From assembly GCA_035546575.1 (NCBI GenBank), contig DASZWN010000002.1, forward strand, positions 257,056 through 321,055: a stretch of DNA of 64,000 nucleotides. Reading direction: 5' to 3'. A model generated the notes under the pieces. That model had not been told where the DNA came from. It ran no database searches and saw only the letters and a program-made list of their open reading frames with translations. Each line of letters opens with the position of its first letter. Position 1 is the first letter of the stretch. Of this stretch, positions 9,449-61,960 are shown one piece after another. Both the position numbers and the translations under genes were made by a program. The stretch is from Minisyncoccota bacterium (GTDB taxonomy: Bacteria > Patescibacteriota > Minisyncoccia > Phycocordibacterales > SBAW01).

Positions 9449-10492
9449 CTACCTCGAAGCGAGGAAACTTTCAATCAAACTCTCCACCTCCGCGGCGTTT
9501 TTTGCCTCCATTAATTGCATGCGCAGCTCTTTTGCGCCGTCAAAACCTTCGACATACGCTTTAAAGTGCTTTTTCATGATCGCAAAGTTTTTGATATCGC
9601 CTAACAGCTCTTCAAATAGCTTGGTGTGCTCTACAGCAATCTGAAGTCGAAATGCGTCCGGGAAAATAGTCTGGCCCGCAAGGGCGCCCCAAAGAGGGCG
9701 CCGCGAGACGGGAGACCCGAGGACTTTTTCTTGGGCGCTTTCGACGGAAGAAAAGAGCCACGGTTTGCCAAAAATCGCGCGCCCAAGCATGACGCCGTCG
9801 GCTCCACTCTCAGTCGCCTTCTTTCTTGCATCGGCAACATCGAGCGCATCGCCGTTGCCGATAATGAGCGTTTTGCTGCCCAACTCATTTCGGATCTCGA
9901 CGGCGCGCTTAACCCTCTCCCAATGCGCAGGCACGAGCGACATTTCTTTGCGCGTGCGAGCGTGGAGCGTAAGCGCCGCCGGCTCTGCAGCCAAAAGCTT
10001 TGGCAGCCACTCCTCCAAAATATCTTTGTTGTAACCTAAACGAGTTTTAACCGAAATCGGCAGGTTGGGCGCACCACGCTTGGCCGCTGCGATAAGCTCA
10101 ACCGCCCGCTCGGGGTTTAAAATGAGTTTTGCTCCCGCGCCTTGCTTTTCGATTGTTTTATCGGGGCAGCCCATGTTGATATCGATCCCGTCAAACCCAA
10201 GCTCTTGAGCGAGCGCCGCAGCATGCTCCATATGCTCGGGTGTGGCGGTAAAAAACTGCGCAACAATGGGCCGCTCGGCCTCGCTGTATAGCAAATCGCG
10301 CAGTAACTTGTTGCGGCCCTCTTCATGCGCCAACGCAAGTCCATCAGCAGAAACGAATTCGGTCCAAAAAACGTTGGGTCCTTCCGGCTTGCTGTACTTT
10401 GCGATAATACGGCGAAAAGCCGCGTCAGTGACGTTAGCTAAAGGCGCAAGCACAAAGAAAGGCCGCGGCAGAGAGTCCCAGAAATTTTTCAT
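9449..10492 (-). CDS. dus: tRNA-dihydrouridine synthase carrying an in-frame repeat-element insertion
   Basis: Dus TIM-barrel motifs (VLAPLANVTD, IDINMGCP); the C-terminal region contains translated element B (VLGSPVSRRPLWGALAGQTIF). Confidence 0.85.
   Translation of the reverse strand: MKNFWDSLPRPFFVLAPLANVTDAAFRRIIAKYSKPEGPNVFWTEFVSADGLALAHEEGRNKLLRDLLYSEAERPIVAQFFTATPEHMEHAAALAQELGFDGIDINMGCPDKTIEKQGAGAKLILNPERAVELIAAAKRGAPNLPISVKTRLGYNKDILEEWLPKLLAAEPAALTLHARTRKEMSLVPAHWERVKRAVEIRNELGSKTLIIGNGDALDVADARKKATESGADGVMLGRAIFGKPWLFSSVESAQEKVLGSPVSRRPLWGALAGQTIFPDAFRLQIAVEHTKLFEELLGDIKNFAIMKKHFKAYVEGFDGAKELRMQLMEAKNAAEVESLIESFLASR
9646..9744. repeat. MITE-like structured repeat element B, copy 1 (inside dus, translated in frame)
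   Basis: shares AAAATAGTCTGGCCCGCAAG-[hairpin]-GCGAGACGGGAGACCCGAGGACTTTTT with copies at about 49230 and 61410; flanked by the inverted repeat GTCGAAATGCG/CGCTTTCGAC. Confidence 0.75.
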
Positions 10493-13518: not shown

Positions 13519-15756
13519 ATGAAGTTGGTGATCGTTGAGTCGCCCGCTAAGGCGAAGACTATTGAGAAGTACCTTAACGATATTGTTAAGGATGGGCGCC
13601 TGCCTGCCGGTAGGCAGGACTTTGTCGTGCGCGCCTCGGTGGGCCATGTCCGCGATCTTCCGAAGTCTAATAAAAAAGCGATCGATATTCCTGCCGGCTT
13701 TGTGCCGCACTACGAGGTTGTGGCAGGCAAGATGAAGGTGATCGACGAGTTAAAAACGCTCGCTAAAAAAGCCGACGAGGTAATACTCGCGACCGACCCC
13801 GACCGCGAGGGCGAGGCTATTGCCTGGCACATTGGCCAGGAACTCAAGCTCAAAAAGCCGGAGCGCATCGTGTTCCACGAGATCACCAAAGAGGCTATCG
13901 CCGAGGCGCTTGCTAACCCGCGTCAGATCGACGAGCACTTGCGTTATGCACAAGAGGCACGCCGCGTGCTCGACCGCCTGGTGGGCTACGACCTCTCGGG
14001 GCTTATCTGGAAGAAGGTTCGATACGGGCTCTCCGCAGGGCGCGTACAATCGCCGGCTTTGCGCATCATTATGGAGCGCGAGCGCGAGATCCGCGCATTT
14101 ATCCCTGAGACCTACTGGGTTATTACCGCACAGACCCAGACCGAGCATAAAGATGCACTCAACCTCACCTGTGTTGAGGAGCCGCGCGACAAAAAACAAG
14201 TCGACCATATTATCGAGGCGGTTAAAAAAGACGGGCTTACTGTCGCCGACGTAACCGAGAGCGAAATGAAGCGGGCTCCAAGAGCGCCATTTACCACCTC
14301 CACCCTCCAGCAGGCGGCATCAACGCGCCTTGGCTTCTCCCCCTCCAACACCATGCGTATTGCGCAAAAACTCTACGAAGCCGGCCACATTACCTACATG
14401 CGCACCGACTCGGTAAACCTTGGCGCTCCTGCACGCGCAGCACTGCTTGCTCATGTTGAGAAAAAGTACGGCAAAGAGTACGTGCAGCCGCATACATTTG
14501 CGACAAAATCTAAAAATGCGCAGGAGGCTCATGAAGCAGTGCGCCCGACTCATATAGAAAAGGAGTCGGTTGGCACAACGCCCGAACAAAAGAAGCTCTA
14601 TGAGCTGATTTGGGCCCGCACGCTCGCATCGCAAATGGCTGATGCAAAACTGCTCAAGACAAAAATAATTGCCGAGACAAAAGATGCAAAGGTTCCGCAA
14701 TTTGCAGCCAATGGATCGCGCGTGATGTTTGACGGCTGGCTGCGTGCCGACCCTGCAGCACGCGGCGAAGATGTCGAGCTGCCAAAAGTCTCTCCAAAAG
14801 AAACACTCGATGTTAAAGATGTTTCTGCGGAGGAAAAGGCTACCACCCCACCGCAGCGCTACTCCGAGGCCGGGCTGATCAAAGAGCTCGAGAAGCGCGG
14901 TATCGGCCGGCCGTCAACGTACGCAAGCATCATGAAGACGCTCCAAGACCGCGGCTACGTACTCAAGGAAGGGCGCTCGCTAATACCTACCGACACCGGC
15001 GATGTGGTCTCAACATTCCTTGAAGACAACTTCCCTACCTATATCTCGGATACGTTTACTGCAGAGATGGAAGACGAGCTCGACGAAATTGCTCTTGGCA
15101 AACGCGAGTATGCAAAGACGCTCGGCGACTTCTATACCCCGTTTCTTAAAGACGTAAAACTCAAAGACAAAGAAGCCGGTAAGATTACCGATCTGGGGCC
15201 GGCACCAAAAGAGTATACCTGCCCCATATGCGGCAGCCCGATGGTGTTTAAGCTCTCTCGCCAGGGCAAATTTATGTCTTGCTCGCGCTTCCCCGACTGT
15301 TTGGGTGCTCGTACAGAAACCGGCGAGGTAATCTCAAACGAGCCGCCAAAACCAATCGGCACGTATCCGGAAAATGGCGAACCTATTTATGTGCTCACCG
15401 GCCGCTTTGGCCCTTATGTGCAAGTTGGCGAAACTCCGACCGGCAAAGGCTCAAAGTCTAAAAACAAACCCAAACGCGGCTCAATTCCTAAAGAAAAAAT
15501 CCCTGAGGAGGTGACTCTCGAAGATGCGCTTAAATATTTGAGCCTCCCGCGTGTACTTGGCAAACATCCGGACACCGAAGAAACTATTACCGCCAACATC
15601 GGCCGCTTCGGTCCCTACATTGCGCACAACACCAAACCAAAGCCGGACTTCCGCTCGCTAAAAACCGACGACGTATATGCAATAACGCTTGAAAGAGCCC
15701 TCGAAATCTTAAGCGAAGAAAAGAAGCGCCGCGGGTTTACAAAGAAAGCAAAATAA
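13519..15756 (+). CDS. topA: DNA topoisomerase I, with an in-frame 20 bp palindrome (LPAGRQ) in the TOPRIM N-terminus
   Basis: KLVIVESPAKAKTIEKYL, SVGHVRDLP, C-terminal Zn ribbons. Confidence 0.95.
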   Translation: MKLVIVESPAKAKTIEKYLNDIVKDGRLPAGRQDFVVRASVGHVRDLPKSNKKAIDIPAGFVPHYEVVAGKMKVIDELKTLAKKADEVILATDPDREGEAIAWHIGQELKLKKPERIVFHEITKEAIAEALANPRQIDEHLRYAQEARRVLDRLVGYDLSGLIWKKVRYGLSAGRVQSPALRIIMEREREIRAFIPETYWVITAQTQTEHKDALNLTCVEEPRDKKQVDHIIEAVKKDGLTVADVTESEMKRAPRAPFTTSTLQQAASTRLGFSPSNTMRIAQKLYEAGHITYMRTDSVNLGAPARAALLAHVEKKYGKEYVQPHTFATKSKNAQEAHEAVRPTHIEKESVGTTPEQKKLYELIWARTLASQMADAKLLKTKIIAETKDAKVPQFAANGSRVMFDGWLRADPAARGEDVELPKVSPKETLDVKDVSAEEKATTPPQRYSEAGLIKELEKRGIGRPSTYASIMKTLQDRGYVLKEGRSLIPTDTGDVVSTFLEDNFPTYISDTFTAEMEDELDEIALGKREYAKTLGDFYTPFLKDVKLKDKEAGKITDLGPAPKEYTCPICGSPMVFKLSRQGKFMSCSRFPDCLGARTETGEVISNEPPKPIGTYPENGEPIYVLTGRFGPYVQVGETPTGKGSKSKNKPKRGSIPKEKIPEEVTLEDALKYLSLPRVLGKHPDTEETITANIGRFGPYIAHNTKPKPDFRSLKTDDVYAITLERALEILSEEKKRRGFTKKAK
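13599..13618. repeat. 20 bp palindromic element A (CCTGCCTGCCGGTAGGCAGG), in frame in topA
   Basis: identical or near-identical copies at 19515, 21599, 42963, 45769, 47486 (21 bp variant), 49072 and 52984. Confidence 0.9.
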
Positions 15757-19499: not shown

Positions 19500-19558
19500 G
19501 CCGGAGTGGCGGAACCTGCCTGCCGGCAGGCAGGTTGGTATACGCGCACGACTCAAAA
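19500..19558 (+). repeat. duplicated 5' half of tRNA-Leu(CAA) (nt 1-38), interrupted by the 20 bp palindrome A
   Basis: GCCGGAGTGGCGGAA-[CCTGCCTGCCGGCAGGCAGG]-TTGGTATACGCGCACGACTCAAAA is identical to 19803-19843 apart from the insertion. Confidence 0.85.
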
Positions 19559-21509: not shown

Positions 21510-22418
21510 GTGCACAAGCCAAAAATCATCGCTATCGTTGGTCCTACCGCCTCGGGCAAGTCTGCCCTTGGTATTTTTCTCGCGCAAAAGCTCAGGCGCC
21601 TGCCTGCCGGTAGGCAGGGCGAGATCATCTCTGCCGATTCTCGGCAGGTATACAAAGGCCTCGATATAGGGACCGGCAAAGTAACCAAAAAAGAGATGGC
21701 TGGTATTTCCCACCACCTGCTTGATGTGGCCTCACCTAAAAAAGTATTTACTGTCGACGACTTTATAAAAAAAGCCTCTGCTACAATCACTACCATATAT
21801 GGTAGTGGCCATACGCCGATTATTGTGGGTGGTACCGGCTTGTATATCGATGCGCTTCTGGGCCGCATAAGCATCCCCAGCGTACCGCCCAACGAAGAGC
21901 TACGTACGCAGCTGGAGAAAAAGAGTGCTACTACGCTATTGAAAATACTCCAAAGACTCGACCCCGAGCGCGCTGAAACAGTCGACCAAAAAAACCCTCG
22001 CAGGCTTGTCCGCGCTATCGAGATAGCCAGGGCAATCGGCAAAACTCCGCCCAAAAAAATCGAGGAAAAGTACGAGATCCTATGGCTCGGCCTGAATCCG
22101 TCTGACCAGGTACTCAAGAAAAATATCCATACTCGCCTGCTTGTCCGCATGAAATTAGGAATGGTCGCCGAAGCTAAACGACTTCACGCACAAGGCCTTT
22201 CCTACAAACGCATGCGGGAGCTCGGGCTCGAGTATCGATATCTTGCAATGTACTTGCAAGATACATTAACTAGAGGCGATTTTGAAATACAGCTTGAGCG
22301 CGCCATCTGGCACTACGCCAAACGCCAGCGCACTTGGTTTAAGCGCAATCAAGAGATCCATTGGATAAAAAACAAAACAGAAGCCCTACGGCTAGCAAAA
22401 GGCTTCCTTTCACGCTAA
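21510..22418 (+). CDS. miaA: tRNA dimethylallyltransferase (GTG start), with an in-frame palindrome A (RRLPAGRQ) after the P-loop region
   Basis: IIAIVGPTASGKS ... ISADSRQVYKGLDIGTGK. Confidence 0.9.
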   Translation: MHKPKIIAIVGPTASGKSALGIFLAQKLRRLPAGRQGEIISADSRQVYKGLDIGTGKVTKKEMAGISHHLLDVASPKKVFTVDDFIKKASATITTIYGSGHTPIIVGGTGLYIDALLGRISIPSVPPNEELRTQLEKKSATTLLKILQRLDPERAETVDQKNPRRLVRAIEIARAIGKTPPKKIEEKYEILWLGLNPSDQVLKKNIHTRLLVRMKLGMVAEAKRLHAQGLSYKRMRELGLEYRYLAMYLQDTLTRGDFEIQLERAIWHYAKRQRTWFKRNQEIHWIKNKTEALRLAKGFLSR

Positions 22419-42347: not shown

Positions 42348-44846
42348 CTATAAGCAGACAAAGCTTGCTATTGCATCCCCGTCGCGGAGCTTCATTATGC
42401 GTACGCCTTGGGTTGAACGGCTGAGAGATGGGATTTCTACAAGGCCGGTGCGGATCACTTGGCCTTTTTTGGACATTACTACCATCTCGTCTTCGCCTAC
42501 GCCTTCTTCTTTAGACACTACTCTTGCGGCAACAAGCGGGCCTGTTTTTGGAGTCACCTTTACCGTCTTGATGCCCGAGCCGCCGCGGTTTTGTGTTTTA
42601 TATTCCGAGACCGGAGTTGTCTTGCCGTAGCCGTTGCGCGAGACAACAAGCACTTCGAGGTCCTTGCGGCCCTTGGGCACCACATCGGCGCCCACGATGG
42701 TGTCGCCGCCCGATAGCTTCATGCCGCGCACGCCGCCGGCACCGCGACCCATCGCGCGAATGTCGCTTTCTTTAAACCGGATCGACTGCCCTTTTGCCGA
42801 GGAGAGGAATATCTCGTCGCCCTTTTCCACAAGCAGTGCCGCAATGAGCTCGTCGCCCTTTTGGAGCTTGATAGCGATGAGGCCGCTGCGGCGCACATCG
42901 TGGAAACTTGCTGCATCTACCTTCTTAGCGACACCCTGCTTGGTGATCATATAGAGGAACTCCTGCCTACCGGCAGGCAGGTCTCCCCTCCCTTTTTCTA
43001 CTTTACGCATCGGCAAAACGCTGGAGACCTTCTCGGTGTCGGTGAGTGAGAGGAAGTTAACTATCGCCTTGCCCTTGGTCGAGCGTTTGCCCTCCGGGAT
43101 ATCATAGAACTTGAGCTGGTACGCCTTGCCCACATCGGTAAAGAAGAGCAGGTCGCTATGGGTCGAGGTCGTGAGGAATGTCGTTACAAAGTCTTCCTCT
43201 TTTGTGTCGAGGTCTATCACGCCGACACCCCCGCGCTTTTGGCGGCGGAACTCGTCGGGGTTCGTGCGCTTTACGTAGCCGCCTTGGGTGAGCACGAGCA
43301 CAGCCTCCTCGTCGGGTACGAGGTCTTCGAGGTTGATCACTCCTGCGGCGCCCTTCATCACCTTGGTGTTGCGGTCGTCGCCGTACTTCTCGACGATTGT
43401 CTGGATCTCGGTCTTGATAACCGTCATCATCTTTTTCTCCGATGCCAAGAGCGAGGTAAGCTCCTCTATGAGCGCCTGAACCTCTTTCAATTCGTCCTCG
43501 ATCTTTTTGCGCTCAAGGTTTGCGAGCTTTTGGAGGCGCATCTCAAGAATAGCGGTAGCCTGGAGCTCGCTAAACTTGAACTTTTTCATCAGGTTGGCGT
43601 GCGCGTCCTGTACATCTTTCGATGCACGGATTGTTTTGATGATCTCGTCGATGATATCGAGCGCCTTTTTGAGGCCGAGCAAAATGTGCTCACGCGCCTG
43701 CGCGCCCTTAAGGTCAAACTCGGTGCGGCGGCGCACCACCTCCTGGCGATGCTTGATAAACTCTTGGAGAATCCCTTTGAGGCTGAGCGTTTGCGGCACG
43801 CCGTCTACCAGCACCACCATGTTGAAATGGAAGGTGTCCTCAAGCGCGGTGTGCTTGTAAAGATAGTTGAGCACCTTCTGCGGGTGTGCACCTTGTTTAA
43901 GCTCCACCACGACGCGGATGTCTTTGGTGGACTCGTCGCGCAGGCCGCGGATACCCTCGAGCTTTTTGTCGCGCACCAGGTCGGCGATGCGCATGATCAT
44001 GTCGGCCTTGTTAACACGATACGGGATAGAGGTAATCACAATCTGGAAGTTCCCCTTTTTGTCCTCGACAATCTCGGCTACGCCGCGCACCACAACGCCG
44101 CCTTTGCCGGTGGTGTAGGCATGCAATAGATCTTTTTTATTAAATGCGACTGCGCCAACCGGGAAGTCCGGCCCCGTGATGTGCTGCATCAGGTCCTCAA
44201 CCGTTGCGTCTTTGTTTTCTATCAAATGTATGAGCGCGTTTGAGACTTCGGTGAGGTTATGCGGCGGGATCGAGGTTGCCATGCCCACCGCGATGCCGAG
44301 CGTGCCGTTGAGCAAAATGTTTGGCACTGCGGCCGGCAACACCTCGGGCTCCTTAAGGCTGCCGTCGTAGTTGGGGCGCCAGTCGATGGTCTCCTTTTCG
44401 ATATCGCCCAGCAATTGTTCCGCCATGCGCGACATTTTTGCCTCGGTGTAGCGCATTGCCGCGGCCGAGTCGCCGTCGATAGAGCCAAAGTTACCTTGGC
44501 CGAGCACCAGCGGATAGCGCATCGAAAACTCTTGCGCCATTTTTACCATCGCGTCGTACACGGAAGCGTCGCCATGCGGGTGATACTTGCCGAGCACATC
44601 GCCCACCACCAGTGCCGACTTGCGGAAGCGCGCCGAGGGTGTGAGCCCCAAGCGATGCATGGTGTAGAGGATGCGACGGTGCACCGGCTTGAGTCCGTCG
44701 CGCACGTCGGGGAGCGCGCGATCGGTAATCACGCTCATTGCGTAGTCGATAAAGCTCTCGCGCATCTCAGCCGAGATGTTGCGACCTACGATGCCGGTGC
44801 CGCCGTCTGGTCGCGGTTCTTTTTTAATTTCGTCTTGATCAGCCAT
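42348..44846 (-). CDS. gyrA: DNA gyrase subunit A, with an in-frame palindrome A (GDLPAGRQE) in the C-terminal domain
   Basis: catalytic-Tyr region AAMRYTE, QRR loop; full length. Confidence 0.95.
42963..42982. repeat. palindrome A copy (inside gyrA)
   Basis: CCTGCCTACCGGCAGGCAGG. Confidence 0.9.
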
Positions 44847-45768: not shown

Positions 45769-45788
45769 CCTGCCTACCGGCAGGCAGG
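45769..45788. repeat. palindrome A copy (intergenic)
   Basis: CCTGCCTACCGGCAGGCAGG. Confidence 0.9.
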
Positions 45789-48631: not shown

Positions 48632-49204
48632 CTACTTTGAGTGTATCTGCATCATCGCGGCATCTACACCTTCTTTCAGGATTATTTCCAGCGCCTCGCT
48701 CACTACTTTTTTTGCTTTTTTGAGCTTTTCTTGCTCTGCGGGTTTAAATTTGCCGAGTACAAAGTCCACTATCTTCTCGGCATCAGGCCGCTTGAGCTTG
48801 CCCGAGGGAGTTGTAGGGCTGATCCCCACACGCACACGCACAAAGTCCTGCGTCTTGAGCGCTTTAATCACCGACTTAACGCCGTTATGGCCGCCTGCGC
48901 TGGAGCCAAACGAGATTTTGACTCTCCCCAGCGGCAAATCGAGCTCATCATGCACCACAATAAGCCTCTGCGCAGCGGCTTTAGAGGGCACCATCTTTTT
49001 TAAAGGGCCGCCAGAGTTGTTCATATATACATCGGGCGTTATAAGCGTGGCTTTAACGCCAAACAGGCTTCCCTGCCTACCGGCAGGCAGGCCTTTTTCG
49101 CCCTCTTTCTTCTCTATATCGCGCAAAAAGTCGCGACCGATGTTGTGGCGCGTGCCTACGTACTCTTCATCTGGATTTCCGAGGCCTGCTACTACCCATT
49201 GCAT
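48632..49204 (-). CDS. pth: peptidyl-tRNA hydrolase, with an in-frame palindrome A (KGLPAGRQGS)
   Basis: GLGNPDEEYVGTRHNIG, HDELDLPLG, GGHNG. Confidence 0.9.
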   Translation of the reverse strand: MQWVVAGLGNPDEEYVGTRHNIGRDFLRDIEKKEGEKGLPAGRQGSLFGVKATLITPDVYMNNSGGPLKKMVPSKAAAQRLIVVHDELDLPLGRVKISFGSSAGGHNGVKSVIKALKTQDFVRVRVGISPTTPSGKLKRPDAEKIVDFVLGKFKPAEQEKLKKAKKVVSEALEIILKEGVDAAMMQIHSK

Positions 49205-49226
49205 GGCTCAAACTATAGCATATGGA

Positions 49227-49335
49227 GTCCGCAGCAAAAAAATGCACAAAAATAGTCTGGCCCGCAAGAATTCCGCGAAGACGGAATTGCGAGACGGGAG
49301 ACCCGAGGACTTTTTTAGGCGTTTTTTTGCTGCGG
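49227..49335. repeat. element B copy 2 (intergenic, between divergent pth and lepB)
   Basis: AAAAATAGTCTGGCCCGCAAG-GAATTCCGCGAAGACGGAATTGC-GAGACGGGAGACCCGAGGACTTTTTT, flanked by the 15 bp inverted repeat TCCGCAGCAAAAAAA/TTTTTTTGCTGCGGA. Confidence 0.8.
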
Positions 49336-49371
49336 ACTTGCATACCTACTTGCGGGGAGTACAATAGTTCC

Positions 49372-49929
49372 ATGCCACAGGAGAATCGTGATAACTTTTT
49401 CACCGAACTCCTGAAATTTGCTCTCATTGCCATCATCATTGTCGTCCCGCTGCGCATTTTTGTAGCAAAACCGTTCATTGTATCGGGTGCCTCGATGGAG
49501 CCAACGTTCGACACCGGCCAATACTTGATTGTCGACGAGCTCTCCTATCGTCTTGAGGCACCGCAGCGCCTCGATGTCGTTATTTTTAAGTATCCGCGCG
49601 ATACCTCGCAATATTTCATCAAACGTATCATCGGGCTGCCTGGCGAAACCGTGATCATCTCCGGCGGGCAAGTATCTATCAAGACAGCAGACGGTAAAAC
49701 AGTAGCGCTCAGCGAGCCGTACATTAAAAACCTTGGTAACGGCGGCGACATGCAGGTAACTCTCAAGACAGATGAGTACTTTGTGATGGGTGACAATCGG
49801 CCAGAGAGCTCCGACTCGCGCATTTGGGGAGTGCTCCCGCGCGCAGACATTGTTGGCCGCGCATTTTTGCGACTGCTCCCCGTCTCGACCCTTGGCGTAT
49901 TCCCCGGCAGCGCAACCGCACAGCAGTAA
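49372..49929 (+). CDS. lepB: signal peptidase I
   Basis: SGASMEPT (Ser box), KRIIGLPGE, GDNRPESSDSR; start re-derived at 49372. Confidence 0.85.
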   Translation: MPQENRDNFFTELLKFALIAIIIVVPLRIFVAKPFIVSGASMEPTFDTGQYLIVDELSYRLEAPQRLDVVIFKYPRDTSQYFIKRIIGLPGETVIISGGQVSIKTADGKTVALSEPYIKNLGNGGDMQVTLKTDEYFVMGDNRPESSDSRIWGVLPRADIVGRAFLRLLPVSTLGVFPGSATAQQ

Positions 49930-49936
49930 TATCGCA

Positions 49937-51124
49937 ATGAGCACCTCTTCATCATCTTCTCGCTCCCCGCATCGCGAAGCGTCCGCTTCATTCATTAAAC
50001 ACGCAAGCGAGGTGGCGAGTTTTTACGGATTCCGCCCCGTACGCGAGATCGAAAAGGAGCATCGTGCGCAATCAGATGTAAAAAATCAAAAACGCATGGG
50101 CCAGGGCGTCTACTCGTTCCAAAGCGCCGCACTTATCGGCGCCGCGCGCGCTGCGTCACGACCGCAAGACCCGGTACTCGCGTTTTATGCAACGCCCGTG
50201 CCAGAACATACCCCAAGTGCGGTACCTCAGCGCGAGGCTGGAGAATTTGGGCTCCAAGTAATTGGGACTCAGGAGAGCGTCGGCGAAATCGTGCTGCTTA
50301 AAACAATTACTATGATCGCCTCTGAATGGGGCACGCCGCTTATGAAAGTGCGCGTCAACGCGCTAGGCGACAAAGACTCTCAGCAGCGCTTCGCGCGCGA
50401 GCTGGGCGGCTACCTGCGCAAACATCTCGACGAGATCGACGAGGCGCTCCGGCGCGGCGTGATGGACGATCCATTCTCGTTTTACCGGATAGGTACGCAG
50501 GTGAGCCGCGATATTCTGGCCGAGGGTCCGCGGCCGATGCATTTCCTTTCAGAAAAGAGCCGCGTGCATTTCCGCTCGGTGCTTGAACATCTCGAGCATC
50601 TTGGCGTGCCGTATGAGCTTGACGATCTTTTAGGCGGCGACGAGCGTGGGCCGCATATTGCCTTTGCGCTCGATTTTGCCGAGGGAGACACGACCATTTT
50701 GGGCGCGCTTGGCGGCCGTTTTGACGAGTACCTTAAACGCGAAACGCATCGCAAAGACTCCGCGGGCGCGGGCGCTTCAATCTACTTCCGCAAAAAGGGC
50801 GCGAACAAGACAAACTTTATGGCGCAGGTGCCGCCGATCAAGCCGAAGATATACTTCGCCCAGCTCGGGCTGCGCGCCAAACTGCAGGGACTCGCCGTTG
50901 TAGATATGCTTCGAGTTGCTCATGTACCGGTGCTCCAATCGTTTGACGCCGCTCGGCTCTCCAACCAGCTTGCTACCGCAGCGCAGCTTGGAGTCTCTCA
51001 CCTGTTTATTATGGGCCAGCGCGAGGCTCTGGACGGCACTATAATTGTGCGCTCGACCCGAAACAGCTCGCAGAACATCATTAGCCTAAACGACGTACCC
51101 CGCTTCCTGCGCAGCTTGCGCTAG
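49937..51124 (+). CDS. divergent class II aaRS-like protein of the HisRS family (histidyl-tRNA synthetase or a HisZ-like paralog) with an anticodon-binding-type C-terminal domain
   Basis: GALGGRFDEY resembles HisRS motif 3 (GGGRYD); the C-terminal ...LFIMGQREALDGTIIVRS resembles the HGTP anticodon domain; the N-terminal motifs are divergent. Confidence 0.45.
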   Translation: MSTSSSSSRSPHREASASFIKHASEVASFYGFRPVREIEKEHRAQSDVKNQKRMGQGVYSFQSAALIGAARAASRPQDPVLAFYATPVPEHTPSAVPQREAGEFGLQVIGTQESVGEIVLLKTITMIASEWGTPLMKVRVNALGDKDSQQRFARELGGYLRKHLDEIDEALRRGVMDDPFSFYRIGTQVSRDILAEGPRPMHFLSEKSRVHFRSVLEHLEHLGVPYELDDLLGGDERGPHIAFALDFAEGDTTILGALGGRFDEYLKRETHRKDSAGAGASIYFRKKGANKTNFMAQVPPIKPKIYFAQLGLRAKLQGLAVVDMLRVAHVPVLQSFDAARLSNQLATAAQLGVSHLFIMGQREALDGTIIVRSTRNSSQNIISLNDVPRFLRSLR

Positions 51125-51155
51125 CCCTAAGCGCGTGCTATTCTAGAGTCCACAT

Positions 51156-51410
51156 ATGGCAGTAAACGCAGAGGTCAAGAAGAACGATGGCGAGACGGCG
51201 GTAAACCTGATCCGCCGCTTTTCTAAGCGCGTACAAGGCGCCCAGGTGCTTGTACGTATGCGCTCACGCCGCTACTACTCGCGCCTTAAGTCTCCGGCAG
51301 TTACTCGCAAACACGCTCTCAAGGTATTGCGCCGCCGCGAGGAAATCCAGGAGCTCATCAAGCTCGGCAAACTCGTTGAGCGCATGCCAGGCGAGCGCCG
51401 CCCTCGATAA
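51156..51410 (+). CDS. rpsU: 30S ribosomal protein S21
   Basis: basic 84 aa protein, ...NLIRRFSKRVQGAQVLVRMRSRRYY... Confidence 0.7.
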   Translation: MAVNAEVKKNDGETAVNLIRRFSKRVQGAQVLVRMRSRRYYSRLKSPAVTRKHALKVLRRREEIQELIKLGKLVERMPGERRPR

Positions 51411-51424
51411 CTTCCTACTCCCGC

Positions 51425-51826
51425 ATGGGGTCAACTTTTTCTCTCAGTAATAAGACGCGCAGGAACCTCCCTCGCGTCCCTTTTCGTCTTATAAAAGAAA
51501 GCATACTCGGTAAAGAGTATGATCTTTCTGTGGCACTGGTCCCGCCGGCCCAGATGCGCTCGATAACCCTCAAGACAAAAAACAAAGACAAAGTTTCTAA
51601 CGTACTGTCGTTCCCGCTCACCGAAAACTCCGGCGAAATACTCATCTGTCCAACGGCCGCAGCTCCGTATACGGTTGGCTATTTGTTTATCCACGGTTGT
51701 CTGCACCTTAAGGGCCATAAACATAGTGATACAATGGAGCGCATTGAGCACGCCCTGCTTAAGCGCTTCGAGCTATGCAAAAAATCGTCACAGGAATCGA
51801 CATCGGCACGTACCAGGTCAAGGTAG
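51425..51826 (+). CDS. ybeY: endoribonuclease YbeY (rRNA maturation factor)
   Basis: HGCLHLKGHKH matches the YbeY H-x3-H-x5-H metal motif; the 3' end overlaps ftsA by about 50 nt. Confidence 0.7.
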   Translation: MGSTFSLSNKTRRNLPRVPFRLIKESILGKEYDLSVALVPPAQMRSITLKTKNKDKVSNVLSFPLTENSGEILICPTAAAPYTVGYLFIHGCLHLKGHKHSDTMERIEHALLKRFELCKKSSQESTSARTRSR

Positions 51827-52953
51827 TTATTGCCGCACGTCCGGAGCATCACGGCGAGCCTCCAAAAATCCTCGGTACCGGCTACGCGGAGAGCCGCGGC
51901 ATGAAGCAGGGCTACATACTCTCGATCCCCGAAGTCTCTCGCTCCATAGCCGCAGCAGTTGTACAAGCCTCTAAAGCCGCGCAGGTAAAGGTGAAGCGCG
52001 CTTACATCGGGATCGGCGGCGTTGGGCTGGACGAGGCCTTCTCGCGGGGCGAGACGGTTGTTGAGCGCGGCGACTCGGAGATCAGCTATCGCGACACTAC
52101 GCGGGTACTCTCGGCTGCCGAGGGCGCACTTTCGCCTGCCGCGCTCCTTAATCGCAAAGTACTGCACACCATTCCCCTGCGCTACTCGGTAGACGGCGTG
52201 CGCGTGATGGGCCGCTCGCCTATCGGCATGAAGGGCATGCGGCTCTCCGCTGAGACGCTTTTTATCACGTGTCTCGACAGGCACGTAAACGACCTCGTTG
52301 CCGCAGTGGAGGAAGCCGGGATCGAGGTCGAGGACATTGCAGCCTCGCCGCTTGCGGCAAGTTTTGTCGCACTTTCAAAGATGCAGAAGCGCGTCGGCTG
52401 CGTGCTCGCAAACATCGGGTCCGAAACACTTTCGATAATCGTATTTGAGGACGGCATTCCGATTTCGGTACGCGTGTTCCCTGTGGGCGCGGCCGACATT
52501 ACGCACGACATCGCGCTCGGTCTGCGCATTTCTCCCGAAGATGCCGAGCAGCTCAAACAAGGCGCTGTGTTGGGGGCCCCGTTTCCGCAGCGCAAGATCG
52601 ACGATCTCATCTCGCGCCGCGTGTCCGACATGTTTAAGCTGGTTGAAGCGCAGCTCAAAAAAATCGGCAAGAACGAGCTCCTGCCGGCTGGCATTGTGCT
52701 CACGGGCGGCGGCTCATCAGTCCAGACTATTTCCGATCTTGCAAAAGCAGTGCTGCGCCTCCCCTCGCGCGTCGCATCGCTCTCCGAGGGCGTCGGCTCA
52801 AAAGTACATCTCAAAGACGGCTCATGGGCGGTAGCCTACGGCCTTACTATATGGGGCTTTACCCAAGGCGAAGACGGCGAGGGTTCGCCGGGCGCCGGTT
52901 TGCGCGACGTACTGCGCATGTTTGTGCATTGGCTCCAGAAGTTCCTGCCGTAG
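51775..52953 (+). CDS. ftsA: cell division protein FtsA
   Basis: actin-fold motifs (GIDIGTYQVKVV; IGIGGVGLDE; VLTGGGS). Confidence 0.85.
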   Translation: MQKIVTGIDIGTYQVKVVIAARPEHHGEPPKILGTGYAESRGMKQGYILSIPEVSRSIAAAVVQASKAAQVKVKRAYIGIGGVGLDEAFSRGETVVERGDSEISYRDTTRVLSAAEGALSPAALLNRKVLHTIPLRYSVDGVRVMGRSPIGMKGMRLSAETLFITCLDRHVNDLVAAVEEAGIEVEDIAASPLAASFVALSKMQKRVGCVLANIGSETLSIIVFEDGIPISVRVFPVGAADITHDIALGLRISPEDAEQLKQGAVLGAPFPQRKIDDLISRRVSDMFKLVEAQLKKIGKNELLPAGIVLTGGGSSVQTISDLAKAVLRLPSRVASLSEGVGSKVHLKDGSWAVAYGLTIWGFTQGEDGEGSPGAGLRDVLRMFVHWLQKFLP

Positions 52954-52983
52954 TAGACAGAACAAAAGAGTAAAAAGTCAAAC

Positions 52984-53003
52984 CCTGCCTGCCGGCAGGC
53001 AGG
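52984..53003. repeat. palindrome A copy (intergenic; extended 28 bp perfect palindrome AAACCCTGCCTGCCGGCAGGCAGGGTTT)
   Basis: read directly. Confidence 0.9.
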
Positions 53004-55185: not shown

Positions 55186-56232
55186 ATGTATGACCTTGCG
55201 ATTGTTGGTGGCGGCCCTGCGGGGGTTGCCGCTGGAGTATATGCCGCCCGCAAAAAACTCAAAACTGTTTTTATCGCAGAGCAGATAGGCGGCCAGAGCA
55301 TGGACTCGGTCGATATTCAAAACTGGATCGGCACGCAGCACATAAGCGGCATGGGGCTCGCCAAACAGCTCGAGATGCACCTGCATGCGTACGCGGCGGA
55401 TGTTGTCGACATGCACCTGGGCGAGCGCGCGCAAAAGGCGCAGAAGATTGATGGAGGATTTTCTATAACTACAGGCAAAGGCACCTACGATGCAAAGGCG
55501 CTCCTTGTCGCAACCGGCGGCATGCGCCGCAAGCTCGATATTTCTACTGCCGCACCATTTGAGAACAAGGGCCTCACCTACTGTGCCTCTTGCGATGGGC
55601 CGCTTTTCTCGGGCCAAGACGCAGTAGTAGTGGGCGGCGGCAACGCCGCGTTTGAGACTGCCGCCCAGCTTTTGGCCTACTGTAAAAGCGTCACGCTTAT
55701 CGCACGCAGCGACTTTGCTAAAGCAGATGCCGCAACGGTAGACGCGGTGCTCGCACACCCAAACATGAAGGCGCTTCAATACACGGTGCCGGTTGAGGTA
55801 AAAGGAGAGATGTTTGTCTCGGGACTTGTTGTAAAAAATACGCAGACAAACGAGCAAAGCGAGTTGCCGGTAGCTGGTATTTTTGTCGAGATAGGTATGT
55901 TGCCATCAACCGATTGGGTAAAAGACCTCGTAAAACTAGATGAGTATGCTCGCGTGGTAGTGGATGCAAGAAATCAGCGCACATATGGAGTTGTAACTCC
56001 AAAAAATTCTTCGGATGCAAGGCGCGGGGAAAGCGGAGAGGGAGACGTACTGAATGGTGCGGCGACCGAGACGCAGGAGCCCCGCAACGCCGCAGCCGGT
56101 GAATTTTTTGGAGTTTGGGCTGCGGGCGATTGTACTGATGAGTTATATCACCAGAACAACATCGCCGCAGGCGATGCCGTAAAGGCGCTTGAGGATATCT
56201 ACTACTGGGTTAAGCAGCAAAAAAGTAAATAA
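55186..56232 (+). CDS. trxB: thioredoxin-disulfide reductase
   Basis: FAD motif IVGGGPAG, redox CASCDG, NADPH motif VVGGGNAA; low-complexity insertion near the C-terminus. Confidence 0.85.
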   Translation: MYDLAIVGGGPAGVAAGVYAARKKLKTVFIAEQIGGQSMDSVDIQNWIGTQHISGMGLAKQLEMHLHAYAADVVDMHLGERAQKAQKIDGGFSITTGKGTYDAKALLVATGGMRRKLDISTAAPFENKGLTYCASCDGPLFSGQDAVVVGGGNAAFETAAQLLAYCKSVTLIARSDFAKADAATVDAVLAHPNMKALQYTVPVEVKGEMFVSGLVVKNTQTNEQSELPVAGIFVEIGMLPSTDWVKDLVKLDEYARVVVDARNQRTYGVVTPKNSSDARRGESGEGDVLNGAATETQEPRNAAAGEFFGVWAAGDCTDELYHQNNIAAGDAVKALEDIYYWVKQQKSK

Positions 56233-56319
56233 AATAAAAAATCTAGGTGGGGGCGTGCCGTTTCGCGAAGCGAAATGGGGCTAAGGATTTTTTATTTTAT
56301 TTACTTTTTTGCCGGGCTT

Positions 56320-60015: not shown

Positions 60016-60794
60016 TGAAACTGGTGTCGCTAAACGCATGGGGCGGGACTCAATTCAACCAGCTGCTTTCTTTTGTAGAAAAGCACGCAAACTCCACCGA
60101 CGTCTTTTGCTTTCAGGAAGTAGCGGTATCCGAGCGTATACAGAGCAAGGAAGAAAAACCTCGCCATAACTTATTGCGCGACTTATCTGAAGTGCTGCCT
60201 GGATTCCAGGTTATATATGCTCCATTTCAAGAAGGATTTAATTGGGAGCCTATAGAAAAAGATATTGCCTTGTGTAACGCAATGTTTGTTCGCAATGGTC
60301 TTAACATTCTTGAGCACGGCCATGTATTTGTGCACGGCGAAAAGAACGGTTTAGACTTTGCGCAGGCAGCAGAGGGCAACTGGTATACCATGCCTCGCCT
60401 GGTGCAGTTTACGCAGATAGATGGCTTCCCCACTATTTTTAACTTCCACGGTTTTTGGCATAAAGACGGCAAGCACGACACGCCCGAACGCATCAAACAG
60501 TCTGAGAAAATAGTCGAGGTTGTACAAAAGTTTAATAATCCGCGCATTTTGTGCGGAGACTTTAACCTCAATATCGATACCGAAAGTCTGGCTATGCTTG
60601 AAGACCGCGGCGGTCTGCGCAACTTAATCAAGGATCACAAAATTGGCACGACCCGCAGCGACCTGTATCCTAAAAAGTCGATCATGCCCTATGCCGACTA
60701 TATGTTTGTCTCGCCCGATATTACTATCAACTCCTTTTCGGTACCCGATGAGCCGGCATCCGACCATTTGCCCATGATCCTTGAATTCAAATGA
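60015..60794 (+). CDS. endonuclease/exonuclease/phosphatase (EEP) family protein; the start codon overlaps the last nt of the tRNA-Val CCA
   Basis: CGDFN and SDHLP motifs; ATG at 60015-60017. Confidence 0.75.
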   Translation: MKLVSLNAWGGTQFNQLLSFVEKHANSTDVFCFQEVAVSERIQSKEEKPRHNLLRDLSEVLPGFQVIYAPFQEGFNWEPIEKDIALCNAMFVRNGLNILEHGHVFVHGEKNGLDFAQAAEGNWYTMPRLVQFTQIDGFPTIFNFHGFWHKDGKHDTPERIKQSEKIVEVVQKFNNPRILCGDFNLNIDTESLAMLEDRGGLRNLIKDHKIGTTRSDLYPKKSIMPYADYMFVSPDITINSFSVPDEPASDHLPMILEFK

Positions 60795-61960
60795 AAATCC
60801 TGGCAATAGAGACCTCGTGCGACGAGACCGGCATTGCCCTGCTTGAGGGAGAAAAAACCTCTGGCGGCTTTGCATTCACCATTCTAAAAGACGTACTACT
60901 TTCGCAGGCACAGCTGCATGCTGAGTATGGCGGCGTCTTCCCTAACCTCGCCAAGCGCGAGCATCAGAAAAACCTCCCTATATTGTTTGAGCAGTTTAAA
61001 GACGAGAAGGTAGACGCAATTGCAGTAACTCACGGCCCAGGGCTTGAGCCGGCACTCTGGACTGGTATCGAGTTTGCTAAAAAACTAGCAGAAGAGTGGC
61101 AAGTACCACTTTTGCCTACCAACCACATGGAGGGGCATCTTATTTCCTCTTTAATAAAACATTCTCAAATTCTCGAGAATTTGAGAATAAGTGTTGGGAC
61201 ACTCTCTGGCATCAAGCTACCAGTTCTGGGGCTGCTCGTATCAGGCGGCCACACAGAGTTTGTGCTTATGAAAGAGTGGTTTGAGTACGAAATAATCGGC
61301 GAGACACTCGACGACGCCGTGGGCGAGGCATTCGACAAAGTTGCGCGTATGCTCGGCCTACCGTACCCGGGAGGCCCACACATCTCAAAACTCGCAGCAC
61401 AATCGCGCCTGCAGGCAGAAAATTCTGACAAAGGTCCTCGGGTCTCCCGTATCGCAATTCCGTCTTTGCGGAATTCTCTCGGGCCAGACCATTTGCCAGA
61501 ACATTCTGCCTTTCGGCTCCCCCGCCCTATGATCAATACAGACTCATGCGATGTTTCTTTCTCCGGCCTTAAGACCGCTGCGCTTTACATGCTGCGCGAC
61601 ATGGGCGGGATACAAACATTATCTGCAGACCAAGTAGCCGACTTTGCCCGCGAGTTTGAGGACGCGGTTGGAGATATCTTTTCTGCCAAAACGCTGCGGG
61701 CACTTGAGCAGACGAGTGCAAAAACATTTGTAATTGGTGGCGGTGTTGCAGCAAATAGTTATTTACGCGCGAAACTTGGCGCAGTGGTTGCAAAAGAGTT
61801 CCCTGAGGTTGAGTTTAAACTCCCTGAGCATGCAATAACCGGCGACAACGCAATCATGATTGGCGAAGCCGCGCTAGCCCGCCGCCTTAGTGGCCTCGAC
61901 GACTCTAAATTTGAAGAAATCCGCGCCCAAGGCCAACTCTCGATTTCATCGCAGAAATAA
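60791..61960 (+). CDS. tsaD: tRNA N6-adenosine threonylcarbamoyltransferase carrying an in-frame element B insertion
   Basis: MKILAIETSCDETGIAL...HMEGH; about 30 aa inserted between ...GGPHISKLA and ...FRLPRPM. Confidence 0.9.
   Translation: MKILAIETSCDETGIALLEGEKTSGGFAFTILKDVLLSQAQLHAEYGGVFPNLAKREHQKNLPILFEQFKDEKVDAIAVTHGPGLEPALWTGIEFAKKLAEEWQVPLLPTNHMEGHLISSLIKHSQILENLRISVGTLSGIKLPVLGLLVSGGHTEFVLMKEWFEYEIIGETLDDAVGEAFDKVARMLGLPYPGGPHISKLAAQSRLQAENSDKGPRVSRIAIPSLRNSLGPDHLPEHSAFRLPRPMINTDSCDVSFSGLKTAALYMLRDMGGIQTLSADQVADFAREFEDAVGDIFSAKTLRALEQTSAKTFVIGGGVAANSYLRAKLGAVVAKEFPEVEFKLPEHAITGDNAIMIGEAALARRLSGLDDSKFEEIRAQGQLSISSQK
61414..61510. repeat. element B copy 3 (inside tsaD, reverse orientation, translated in a different frame from copy 1)
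   Basis: the reverse complement matches AAATGGTCTGGCCCGAGAG-AATTCCGCAAAGACGGAATT-GCGATACGGGAGACCCGAGGAC; flanked by the inverted repeat GGCAGAAAATTCTGAC/GCCAGAACATTCTGCC. Confidence 0.8.

Follow-up and report, generated by a model that had tools for sequence, protein, structure and literature searches.

How can one and the same DNA hairpin stand inside two unrelated protein-coding genes and leave both open reading frames (ORFs) intact? The question is raised by the window, that is, the whole stretch of 64,000 nt analysed here (contig DASZWN010000002.1 of a Minisyncoccota bacterium). It holds exactly three copies of a structured element of about 100 nt: one inside dus, one inside tsaD and one between pth and lepB. 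We found that the element belongs to a dispersed family, that the nucleotide sequence of its central core is conserved between genomes that have diverged deeply, and that the inverted repeats flanking the core consist partly of host codons. The last two points go beyond an earlier note on this DNA, in which the three copies had been described from the sequence. The explanation that we favour, and regard as probable, is a selfish palindromic repeat comparable to the Rickettsia palindromic elements (RPEs), tolerated in protein loops, with outer stems that arose by hairpin-templated copying.

Three copies and the family they belong to

The three copies were found where the earlier note had placed them. 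Copy 1, within dus, forms a hairpin at 9646-9745 on the plus strand; its core, counted from the A-run to the T-run, is at 9663-9729, its outer arms are at 9646-9662 and 9730-9745, and its apical hairpin is GGGCGCCCCAAAGAGGGCGCC. The intergenic copy 2 spans 49225-49339 on the plus strand (core 49248-49316) and has an outer stem of ~21 bp, GAGTCCGCAGCAAAAAAATGC/GCGTTTTTTTGCTGCGGACTT. Copy 3 lies in tsaD at 61413-61511 on the minus strand, with the core at 61430-61495 between arms at 61413-61429 (AGGCAGAAAATTCTGAC) and 61496-61511 (CCAGAACATTCTGCCT). In all three copies a locus-specific outer stem surrounds a core that hardly varies, AAAATAGTCTGGCCCG - variable apical hairpin - CGGGAGACCCGAGGACTTTTT; the common 3′ side reads (G/T)ACGGGAGACCCGAGGAC and then becomes T-rich. 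An 18-mer taken from the 3′ arm, GACGGGAGACCCGAGGAC, matched three times in the window at up to three mismatches, where 0.06 matches were expected and none of 100 shuffles reached three. A covariance model made from 53 copies scored copies 1, 2 and 3 at 78.5, 75.5 and 69.8 bits and the next match in the window at 20 bits, and so detected only these three.

The apical hairpins differ in sequence yet stay paired: copy 1 has GGGCGCC/GGCGCC, whereas copies 2 and 3 have GAATTCCG/CGGAATT. Each copy also has its own flanking inverted repeat; both features had been claimed. When ~120 nt around each copy was folded, the ~100-nt copies each formed a single long hairpin at −57 to −61 kcal/mol, with z between −5.7 and −7.9, and the strand carrying the T-run folded better than its complement. 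The dus and tsaD copies are read in different frames of ORFs that remain open, both antisense to the T-run strand, again as described before.

An exact scan with the pattern TCTGGCCCG-N15-45-CGGGAGACCCGAGGAC found 57 copies across 54 loci and the window, all of them from Candidatus Adlerbacteria, Paceibacterota or Patescibacteria. In GTDB species-representative genomes there were 21 such loci, all in metagenome-assembled genomes (MAGs) of these groups, and 33 metagenome contigs carried an exact-core element. The covariance model gave 59 matches in 359 kb of element loci. At least seven copies with nearly the same apical hairpin occur at unrelated loci of the genome CAINNF01, and the viral contigs scanned for the element held none. 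The search in related genomes that the earlier note had proposed thus yielded a dispersed family widespread in Paceibacterota and not a local duplication. Rfam models at gathering thresholds matched only 11 tRNAs in the whole window, and three element loci searched at E values up to 1 gave only chance matches to microRNA precursors over the element. A full-text literature search for the core sequence, or for palindromic or in-frame repeats of the candidate phyla radiation (CPR) or Parcubacteria, returned nothing relevant, in agreement with the earlier statement that no description for such genomes was known. The literature searched holds no description of this element, and by analogy it would be a second, independent case of selfish DNA inside protein-coding genes.

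The 57 copies share one plan. From the outside inwards, each has a locus-specific outer stem, a small purine-rich internal loop, an A-run paired with a T-run and carrying one bulged T, a helix GTC/GAC, an invariant asymmetric internal loop with TGG on one side and AGAC..CC..GA on the other, a helix CCCG/CGGG, and an apical hairpin that varies in sequence and length. Written linearly, the core of 57-70 nt is an A-run, (T)AGTCTGG-CCCG, the apical hairpin, which varies but is paired in every case, CGGG-AGACCCGAGGAC and a T-run. That covariation maintains this fold, as had been proposed, is borne out by 53 distinct sequences. In these, 93.1% of cells are paired, compared with 80.2% in shuffles and 33-63% when the partners were slid, and 13 of 26 pairs have changed on both sides. 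The pair next to CCCG/CGGG, C26:G55, is C:G in 31 sequences and A:U in 17, and diverged copies found by the model have the compensated change of CCCG/CGGG to CCTG/CAGG. Columns 19:69 form a U:G pair in 53 of 53 sequences. The inner 14 nt contain 51 G:T pairs against a single A:C, together with a conserved purine-purine loop; the inner stem is therefore a strand-specific design that belongs to the element itself. The core ends in GGAC followed by T5-6, and a simple consensus scan for intrinsic terminators called none of the three window copies.

Three further structures were observed. One copy at another locus (L036:2239-2288) is internally deleted: it keeps AAAATAGTCTGG, ACCCGAGGACTTTTT and its own paired flanks and is without the CCCG...CGGG helix and the apical hairpin. 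At 56227-56302 of the window a long hairpin lies between convergent genes, with a perfect A/T-rich outer stem of 25 bp and a G+C-rich structured centre (TAGGTGGGGGCGTGCCGTTTCGCGAAGCGAAATGGGGCTAAG). It scored 20 bits against the family model and may be a distant relative or a plain bidirectional terminator. Counting stems of 9 bp or more with loops of 10 nt or less, we found 23 perfect hairpins over the window as a whole, whereas first-order Markov simulations gave 1-7 (mean ~2.5); many of the 23 have terminator-like A/T-run flanks.

Insertions within genes

The dus gene (9449-10492, minus strand) encodes a tRNA-dihydrouridine synthase of 347 aa (Pfam PF01207), in which the element segment is read as EKVLGSPVSRRPLWGALAGQTIF, residues ~256-278, which fall in the linker connecting the TIM barrel with the C-terminal helical domain. 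The window Dus is 100% identical to P0121, a protein of a Candidatus Paceibacterota MAG. In its AlphaFold model, residues 242-276 have a predicted local distance difference test (pLDDT) score below 50 and no secondary structure, and the insert is thus predicted to be a disordered inter-domain linker that the fold tolerates. Orthologues with 82-87% identity and an empty site, PWLF-ATAPENSPSLEV-RLRIA, are 320-327 aa long, as against 342-360 aa for filled proteins. At the DNA level the linker outside the core measures 11-13 codons in filled genes and 9-12 in empty ones; the net gain is therefore essentially the core alone, 57-69 nt.

In tsaD (60791-61960, plus strand, 389 aa, Pfam PF00814) the segment is read as KGPRVSRIAIPSLRNSLGPDHL, and the element with its arms corresponds to residues ~208-240. 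Ten TsaD orthologues have the segment at the same place and in the same frame, whereas P0003 (84% identity; L058), P0005, P0006, P0013 and P0015 lack it. The net gain is ~81 nt, and E. coli TsaD has 4 residues where the window TsaD has 35. At another site, the linker of a MutY-like glycosylase is KDGWGG (6 aa) when empty and 32-33 aa when filled, and the RecJ insert is 36 aa long against 3 aa in the solved RecJ 8y30. The TsaD, RecJ and MutY-like inserts fall between blocks that can be aligned to solved structures or empty orthologues. Among orthologues the inserts of Dus and of TsaD vary in length with the frame always preserved, and a degraded copy occupies the Dus site of P0122. Judged from these alignments, in which orthologues with empty sites are present, the dus and tsaD copies are lineage-specific in-frame insertions, which is what had been proposed.

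About 30 copies lie in ORFs of at least 200 aa, 27 of them antisense and 4 sense. The other host genes include ArgRS, PolA (five contigs), DnaE, RecJ, RecG, IleRS, the MutY-like glycosylase (five contigs), a glycosyltransferase, a transketolase and a protease. All three antisense frames of the core and two of the three sense frames are free of stops, and the core is read in at least five different frames across genes. We saw no copy that splits a gene, nor any closed-frame or out-of-frame copy inside one. Intergenic copies stand 25-50 nt past ORF ends, often between convergent genes.

The core is conserved as nucleotides. In a comparison of four tsaD orthologues with 68-79% protein identity, the codons for unchanged amino acids were identical in the core at 10-11 of 10-11 positions, as against 41-53% in the host gene; in the core blocks of Dus the count was 8-10 of 10-11. 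Different genes read the core in at least five frames, so this conservation cannot be due to selection on the protein. It has one of three causes: continuing copying, conversion between copies, or constraint on the nucleic acid. The tsaD copy of locus L060 has the exact apical hairpin of the window dus copy, while the window tsaD copy has another, which suggests exchange between copies. The conservation could also leave room for a function, as an RNA or single-stranded DNA signal, or for a mobilising machinery.

Other inserts were seen in the same places. In the TsaD, Dus and MutY-like orthologues of other genomes, the loops that hold the element contain unrelated segments: VSNHPLADLQGGN in TsaD, KSLGGGGQ..KDFS in Dus and KKGEMNGSPTPFF in the MutY-like gene (P0002, P0014, P0052; P0135, P0139, P0142, P0144; P0243, P0266, P0290, P0298). 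These loops are hot spots for several insert families. Elsewhere in the window tsaD, at 61161-61188, a perfect palindrome of 28 nt, ATTCTCAAATTCTCGAGAATTTGAGAAT, encodes HSQILENLRI. E. coli TsaD and the orthologues P0002-P0004 lack this segment, and the MutY-like gene of L046 contains a similar HSQILKNMRIS. This palindrome probably represents a third family of in-frame palindromic elements. On one short Logan contig (L059:1249-1698) a fragment of a reverse-transcriptase gene (PF00078) lies directly downstream of a filled tsaD.

Outer stems, the flipped core and other features of the window

The arms, measured by gapped extension alignment because ungapped extension failed at the bulged T, are 22 nt long at the median, with the A/T run counted in, and reach 36-49 nt. 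Further than 14 nt from the core we counted 531 Watson-Crick pairs and 37 mismatches (~93% Watson-Crick), and G:T (13) was not favoured over A:C (8), which points to DNA-level symmetry and not to selection acting on an RNA. The information content of the arms is 0.1-0.8 bit per position and is gone beyond ~14 nt. In the four tsaD orthologues the arms differ at about half of their positions, and each pair is still a near-perfect palindrome of 13-17 bp.

Parts of these stems are host sequence. One RecJ arm encodes LPRDAF, which aligns with LP-EAYA of RecJ 8y30, and the opposite arm, EKASE, is its reverse complement. In Dus the nearly invariant R282 codon lies inside the stem, and the arms sit at ancestral linker positions. 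At the MutY-like site one arm of L046 is the conserved AKLL, and LRDIFVQ is one arm of P0241, the other arm (GAKMS) being its reverse complement; in P0247 the corresponding LRDIFAE lies outside the hairpin. The same site also holds a flipped core: L047 and L008 have an identical core in opposite orientations, with unrelated arms and an equal total length.

Several simple accounts of the arms were tried. Direct duplication of a palindromic target was suggested by the arms of the window tsaD copy, which match as direct repeats at 11 of 12 positions. It was rejected because the arms of L059 are perfect only as an inverted repeat and the non-palindromic arms of L017, whose flanks TCGAAACCACCTCAG and CTGAGGTGGTTTCGA are reverse complements, have no direct similarity. 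A fixed polarity, with the 5′ arm always derived from the host, fits RecJ and Dus and was rejected since the reverse holds in the MutY-like L046 and P0241. The idea that the ancestral MutY-like linker consisted of the upstream arm of L047 and the downstream arm of L008 is refuted by the empty genes, which have only KDGWGG. Insertion of the element into pre-existing palindromes was also considered; the empty Dus and TsaD sites contain short palindromes centred on GAATTC.

A second palindromic family was observed in the window. Its 20-bp sequence, CCTGCCTRCCGGYAGGCAGG, occurs seven times where no copy is expected, at 13599-13618, 19515-19534, 21599-21618, 42962-42981, 45769-45788, 49072-49091 and 52984-53003. 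Five of the seven copies are in genes (topA, parB, miaA, gyrA and pth), where they can encode an LPAGRQ-type peptide, depending on the frame.

Copy 2 of the focal element is flanked by two divergent genes, pth (peptidyl-tRNA hydrolase, 48632-49204, minus strand, Pfam PF01195) on its left and lepB (signal peptidase I, 49372-49929, plus strand, Pfam PF10502) on its right. The main gene orientation turns from minus to plus at this divergence. The orientation of the elements changes as well, from plus (copies 1 and 2) to minus (copy 3). The minimum of the cumulative GC skew lies near 50-53 kb, and the region of about 49000-53000 may contain the replication origin, the signal being weak. The skew is too weak to tell a replication-linked from a transcription-linked orientation bias of the elements.

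Origin of the element and comparison with known systems

The course of events that we consider probable is as follows. A selfish core would spread to unrelated places, as the distribution of its copies suggests. Copies would persist in intergenic spacers or, in frame, within tolerant loops and linkers, where translation would most likely add 20-35 residues of disordered loop to the protein. Such tolerance would work because five of the six core frames are stop-free, and the antisense bias likely comes from a TAG in one sense frame and from the stronger hairpin and following U-run of the sense strand. The outer stem would not be carried from place to place; it would be formed on site from flanking sequence, one flank being copied as the reverse complement over or beside the other. 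The same process, most likely template switching across the hairpin during replication, would keep the arms symmetric. A strong core hairpin would promote such switching during replication or repair. Template switching between the arms of inverted repeats is known to homogenise arms and invert spacers in coding DNA, and it has extended an arm from 5 to 16 bp in one event in yeast REG2 (PMC8604942); perfect stems can be made in a single event (PMC8794818). It would cover the perfect locus-specific stems, the paired differences among orthologues, the host codons in the stems and the flipped core. Which of the two flanks survives and which is overwritten would be determined by purifying selection on the protein, and this fits the absence of a fixed arm polarity.

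Some of our results weigh against this explanation. The strand-specific G:T pairs of the inner stem and the perfect core of old copies fit a selected function equally well. Among the 40 largest ORFs of the window none encodes a transposase, a reverse transcriptase or an HUH enzyme. No autonomous longer element with the same ends was found in 436 kb, where a search for solo half-elements gave chance matches only, so that we infer mobility from the distribution of the copies. Net insertion size differs by site, from 57 to 99 nt, and no single rule fits: the gain is the core in Dus, the core and about one arm in TsaD and the MutY-like gene, and ~99 nt in RecJ. There is a weak arm consensus to ~14 nt past the A/T runs, and copies of one subfamily share ~9-16 nt beside the core, so part of an arm may travel with the element. 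The seven window copies of the CCTGCCTRCCGGYAGGCAGG family, in the same genome, have no paired flanks. Growth of arms is thus specific to the focal family, and template switching at every hairpin cannot explain arms in that family alone. This leaves room for an insertion-coupled process or a dedicated enzyme. We also entertain, as an unlikely alternative, a dedicated CPR process of insertion or maintenance that would have the core as its substrate and write an inverted copy of the neighbouring target beside the element, or a core that is a domesticated nucleic-acid signal under selection in essential genes across Paceibacterota. An inverted target-site duplication of this kind, if real, would be a mode of DNA mobility without a described counterpart.

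A related view, which we hold to be improbable, is that the core is a functional structured nucleic-acid module selected for the host, the gene copies being domesticated and not merely tolerated. Candidates would be a site for protein binding or processing, a stop for bidirectional or antisense transcription, and a hairpin related to replication or repair. The core is fully kept at synonymous sites while its host genes keep the same codon at only 41-53%. The asymmetric loop and the U:G pair are invariant in all 53 sequences, and the excess of G:T over A:C in the inner stem means that one particular strand folds. The frequent position of intergenic copies between convergent genes and the filling of the same loop sites across many lineages agree with a function as well. 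However, empty Dus, TsaD and MutY-like sites are common and close orthologues are fine without the element. The host genes are unrelated in function, one site holds the element in both orientations, and copies may be degraded or internally deleted, as in P0122 and L036. No Rfam family matched, the terminator scan called none of the window copies, and concerted evolution, to which the apical hairpin shared by L060 tsaD and the window dus copy points, can also keep old cores identical. The opposite extreme, on which the segments would be normal protein insertions specific to the lineage or stem from a recent duplication within the window alone, agrees with the variable length of the host loops among orthologues and has no other support. 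It is ruled out by the same 25 specified bases at 54 other loci in many assemblies and unrelated genes, read in different frames and on both strands, and by the intergenic position of one window copy.

We also think it doubtful that the whole unit of ~100 nt, arms included, was moved by a transposase encoded elsewhere, of IS200/IS605 type or of the type of the REP-associated tyrosine transposases (RAYTs), like a MITE (miniature inverted-repeat transposable element) or a repetitive extragenic palindromic (REP) sequence, the arms then differing through fast divergence under a pairing constraint. The fairly constant arm length and the weak consensus would agree with this, as would the sequence TTCCTGAAG...CGGAGGGAA that subfamily copies of one genome share beside the core, and the unit at the MutY-like site, which appears to be flipped whole with its total length unchanged. 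Single-strand transposases act on imperfect, strand-specific hairpin substrates, to which the hairpin of the element is similar. On the other side, the net gain in Dus is the core only, with arms replacing ancestral linker residues, and conserved host codons lie inside the arms of RecJ and the MutY-like gene. A single old tsaD insertion has arms that differ at about half of their positions among orthologues and are still perfect palindromes. Direct target-site duplication was not seen, the GTAG/CGTC tag is absent, none of the 40 largest ORFs of the window encodes a transposase and the 436 kb yielded no solo ends. Far less probable still is that the inserts escape translation, the hairpin segment being cut from the mRNA like an intron or bypassed by the ribosome as in a translational hop. 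The long stem of every copy would bring the host flanks together, and elements do lie in essential genes. An open frame would be unnecessary, however, if the segment were removed, and the in-gene copies are all in frame and free of stops, their variable lengths always preserving the frame, with no closed-frame or out-of-frame copy seen. A selfish repeat with stems made on site by hairpin-templated copying thus remains the explanation that we prefer.

The genes affected are core genes of replication, repair and translation, namely PolA, DnaE, RecJ, RecG, MutY-like, IleRS, ArgRS, TsaD and Dus. Some of the unexplained variation in length and some of the loop insertions seen in CPR proteins may be due to the element, and annotators and structure predictors should be aware that such segments are repeat-derived.

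Bacterial MITEs such as Correia, ERIC, BOX, RUP and SPRITE (PMC10969869) resemble the element in being small non-autonomous repeats with hairpin potential and A/T-flanked stems, sometimes intragenic and often at gene ends. MITEs are defined by terminal inverted repeats common to their copies, direct target-site duplications and a related insertion sequence (IS) (PMC10969869). In the focal family the arms differ by locus, the flanks are reverse complements without direct repeats, and no cognate IS was found among the 40 largest ORFs of the window. Of the double label MITE/RPE-like that the earlier note had given, the RPE-like part is therefore a fair functional analogy, while the strict MITE part is not supported, the terminal repeats not being conserved between copies, no direct target-site duplication having been seen and no cognate transposase found. 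As regards a SPRITE or intrinsic terminator, the core does end with GGAC and T5-6 and many intergenic copies follow ORF ends, yet the consensus scan called none of the window copies, copy 2 lies between divergent genes and most copies are in ORFs. REP sequences and bacterial interspersed mosaic elements (BIMEs) with RAYT (IS200/IS605-like) transposases (PMC3733652) are likewise imperfect strand-specific hairpins in many copies. REPs, however, are 20-40 nt long, extragenic and marked by a GTAG/CGTC tag (PMC3733652), whereas the focal element is 60-110 nt long, mostly intragenic and without the tag, and no RAYT gene is in the window. Template-switch (quasipalindrome) mutagenesis (PMC8604942, PMC8794818, PMC5941160) shares with the element homogenised arms, sudden extension into coding sequence and spacer inversion. 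It is a mutational process and not an element, and its coding cases in yeast have spacers of a few bases, in contrast to the structured core of ~60 nt here. The paired site-specific stems, with their host codons, and the flipped core offer a natural, highly replicated system in which hairpin growth, symmetry and inversion by template switching in coding DNA could be studied.

The closest likeness is to the RPEs of Rickettsia, palindromic repeats that occur in frame in many housekeeping genes at places tolerated by the fold (Ogata et al. 2000, 2002, as reviewed in PMC10969869). Both are short palindromes (~100-150 bp) scattered over a reduced genome, with many copies in frame within housekeeping genes that are unrelated to one another; both add a peptide at fold-compatible places, and neither encodes a transposase within it. 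The comparison, made with RPEs as they are described, also brings out differences. The host phylum is CPR/Paceibacterota here and Alphaproteobacteria there. The conserved part of the focal element is the central core, with an outer stem that differs from locus to locus and contains host codons in part. At least five frames are used to read the core, whereas each RPE family has one conserved peptide, and the focal element is strongly biased to the antisense orientation. Membership by descent in the RPE families is very unlikely, the host being Candidatus Paceibacterota. By this analogy, in-frame palindromic repeats, best known from Rickettsia, would have arisen independently in the CPR, that is, in other tiny host-dependent cells with reduced genomes.

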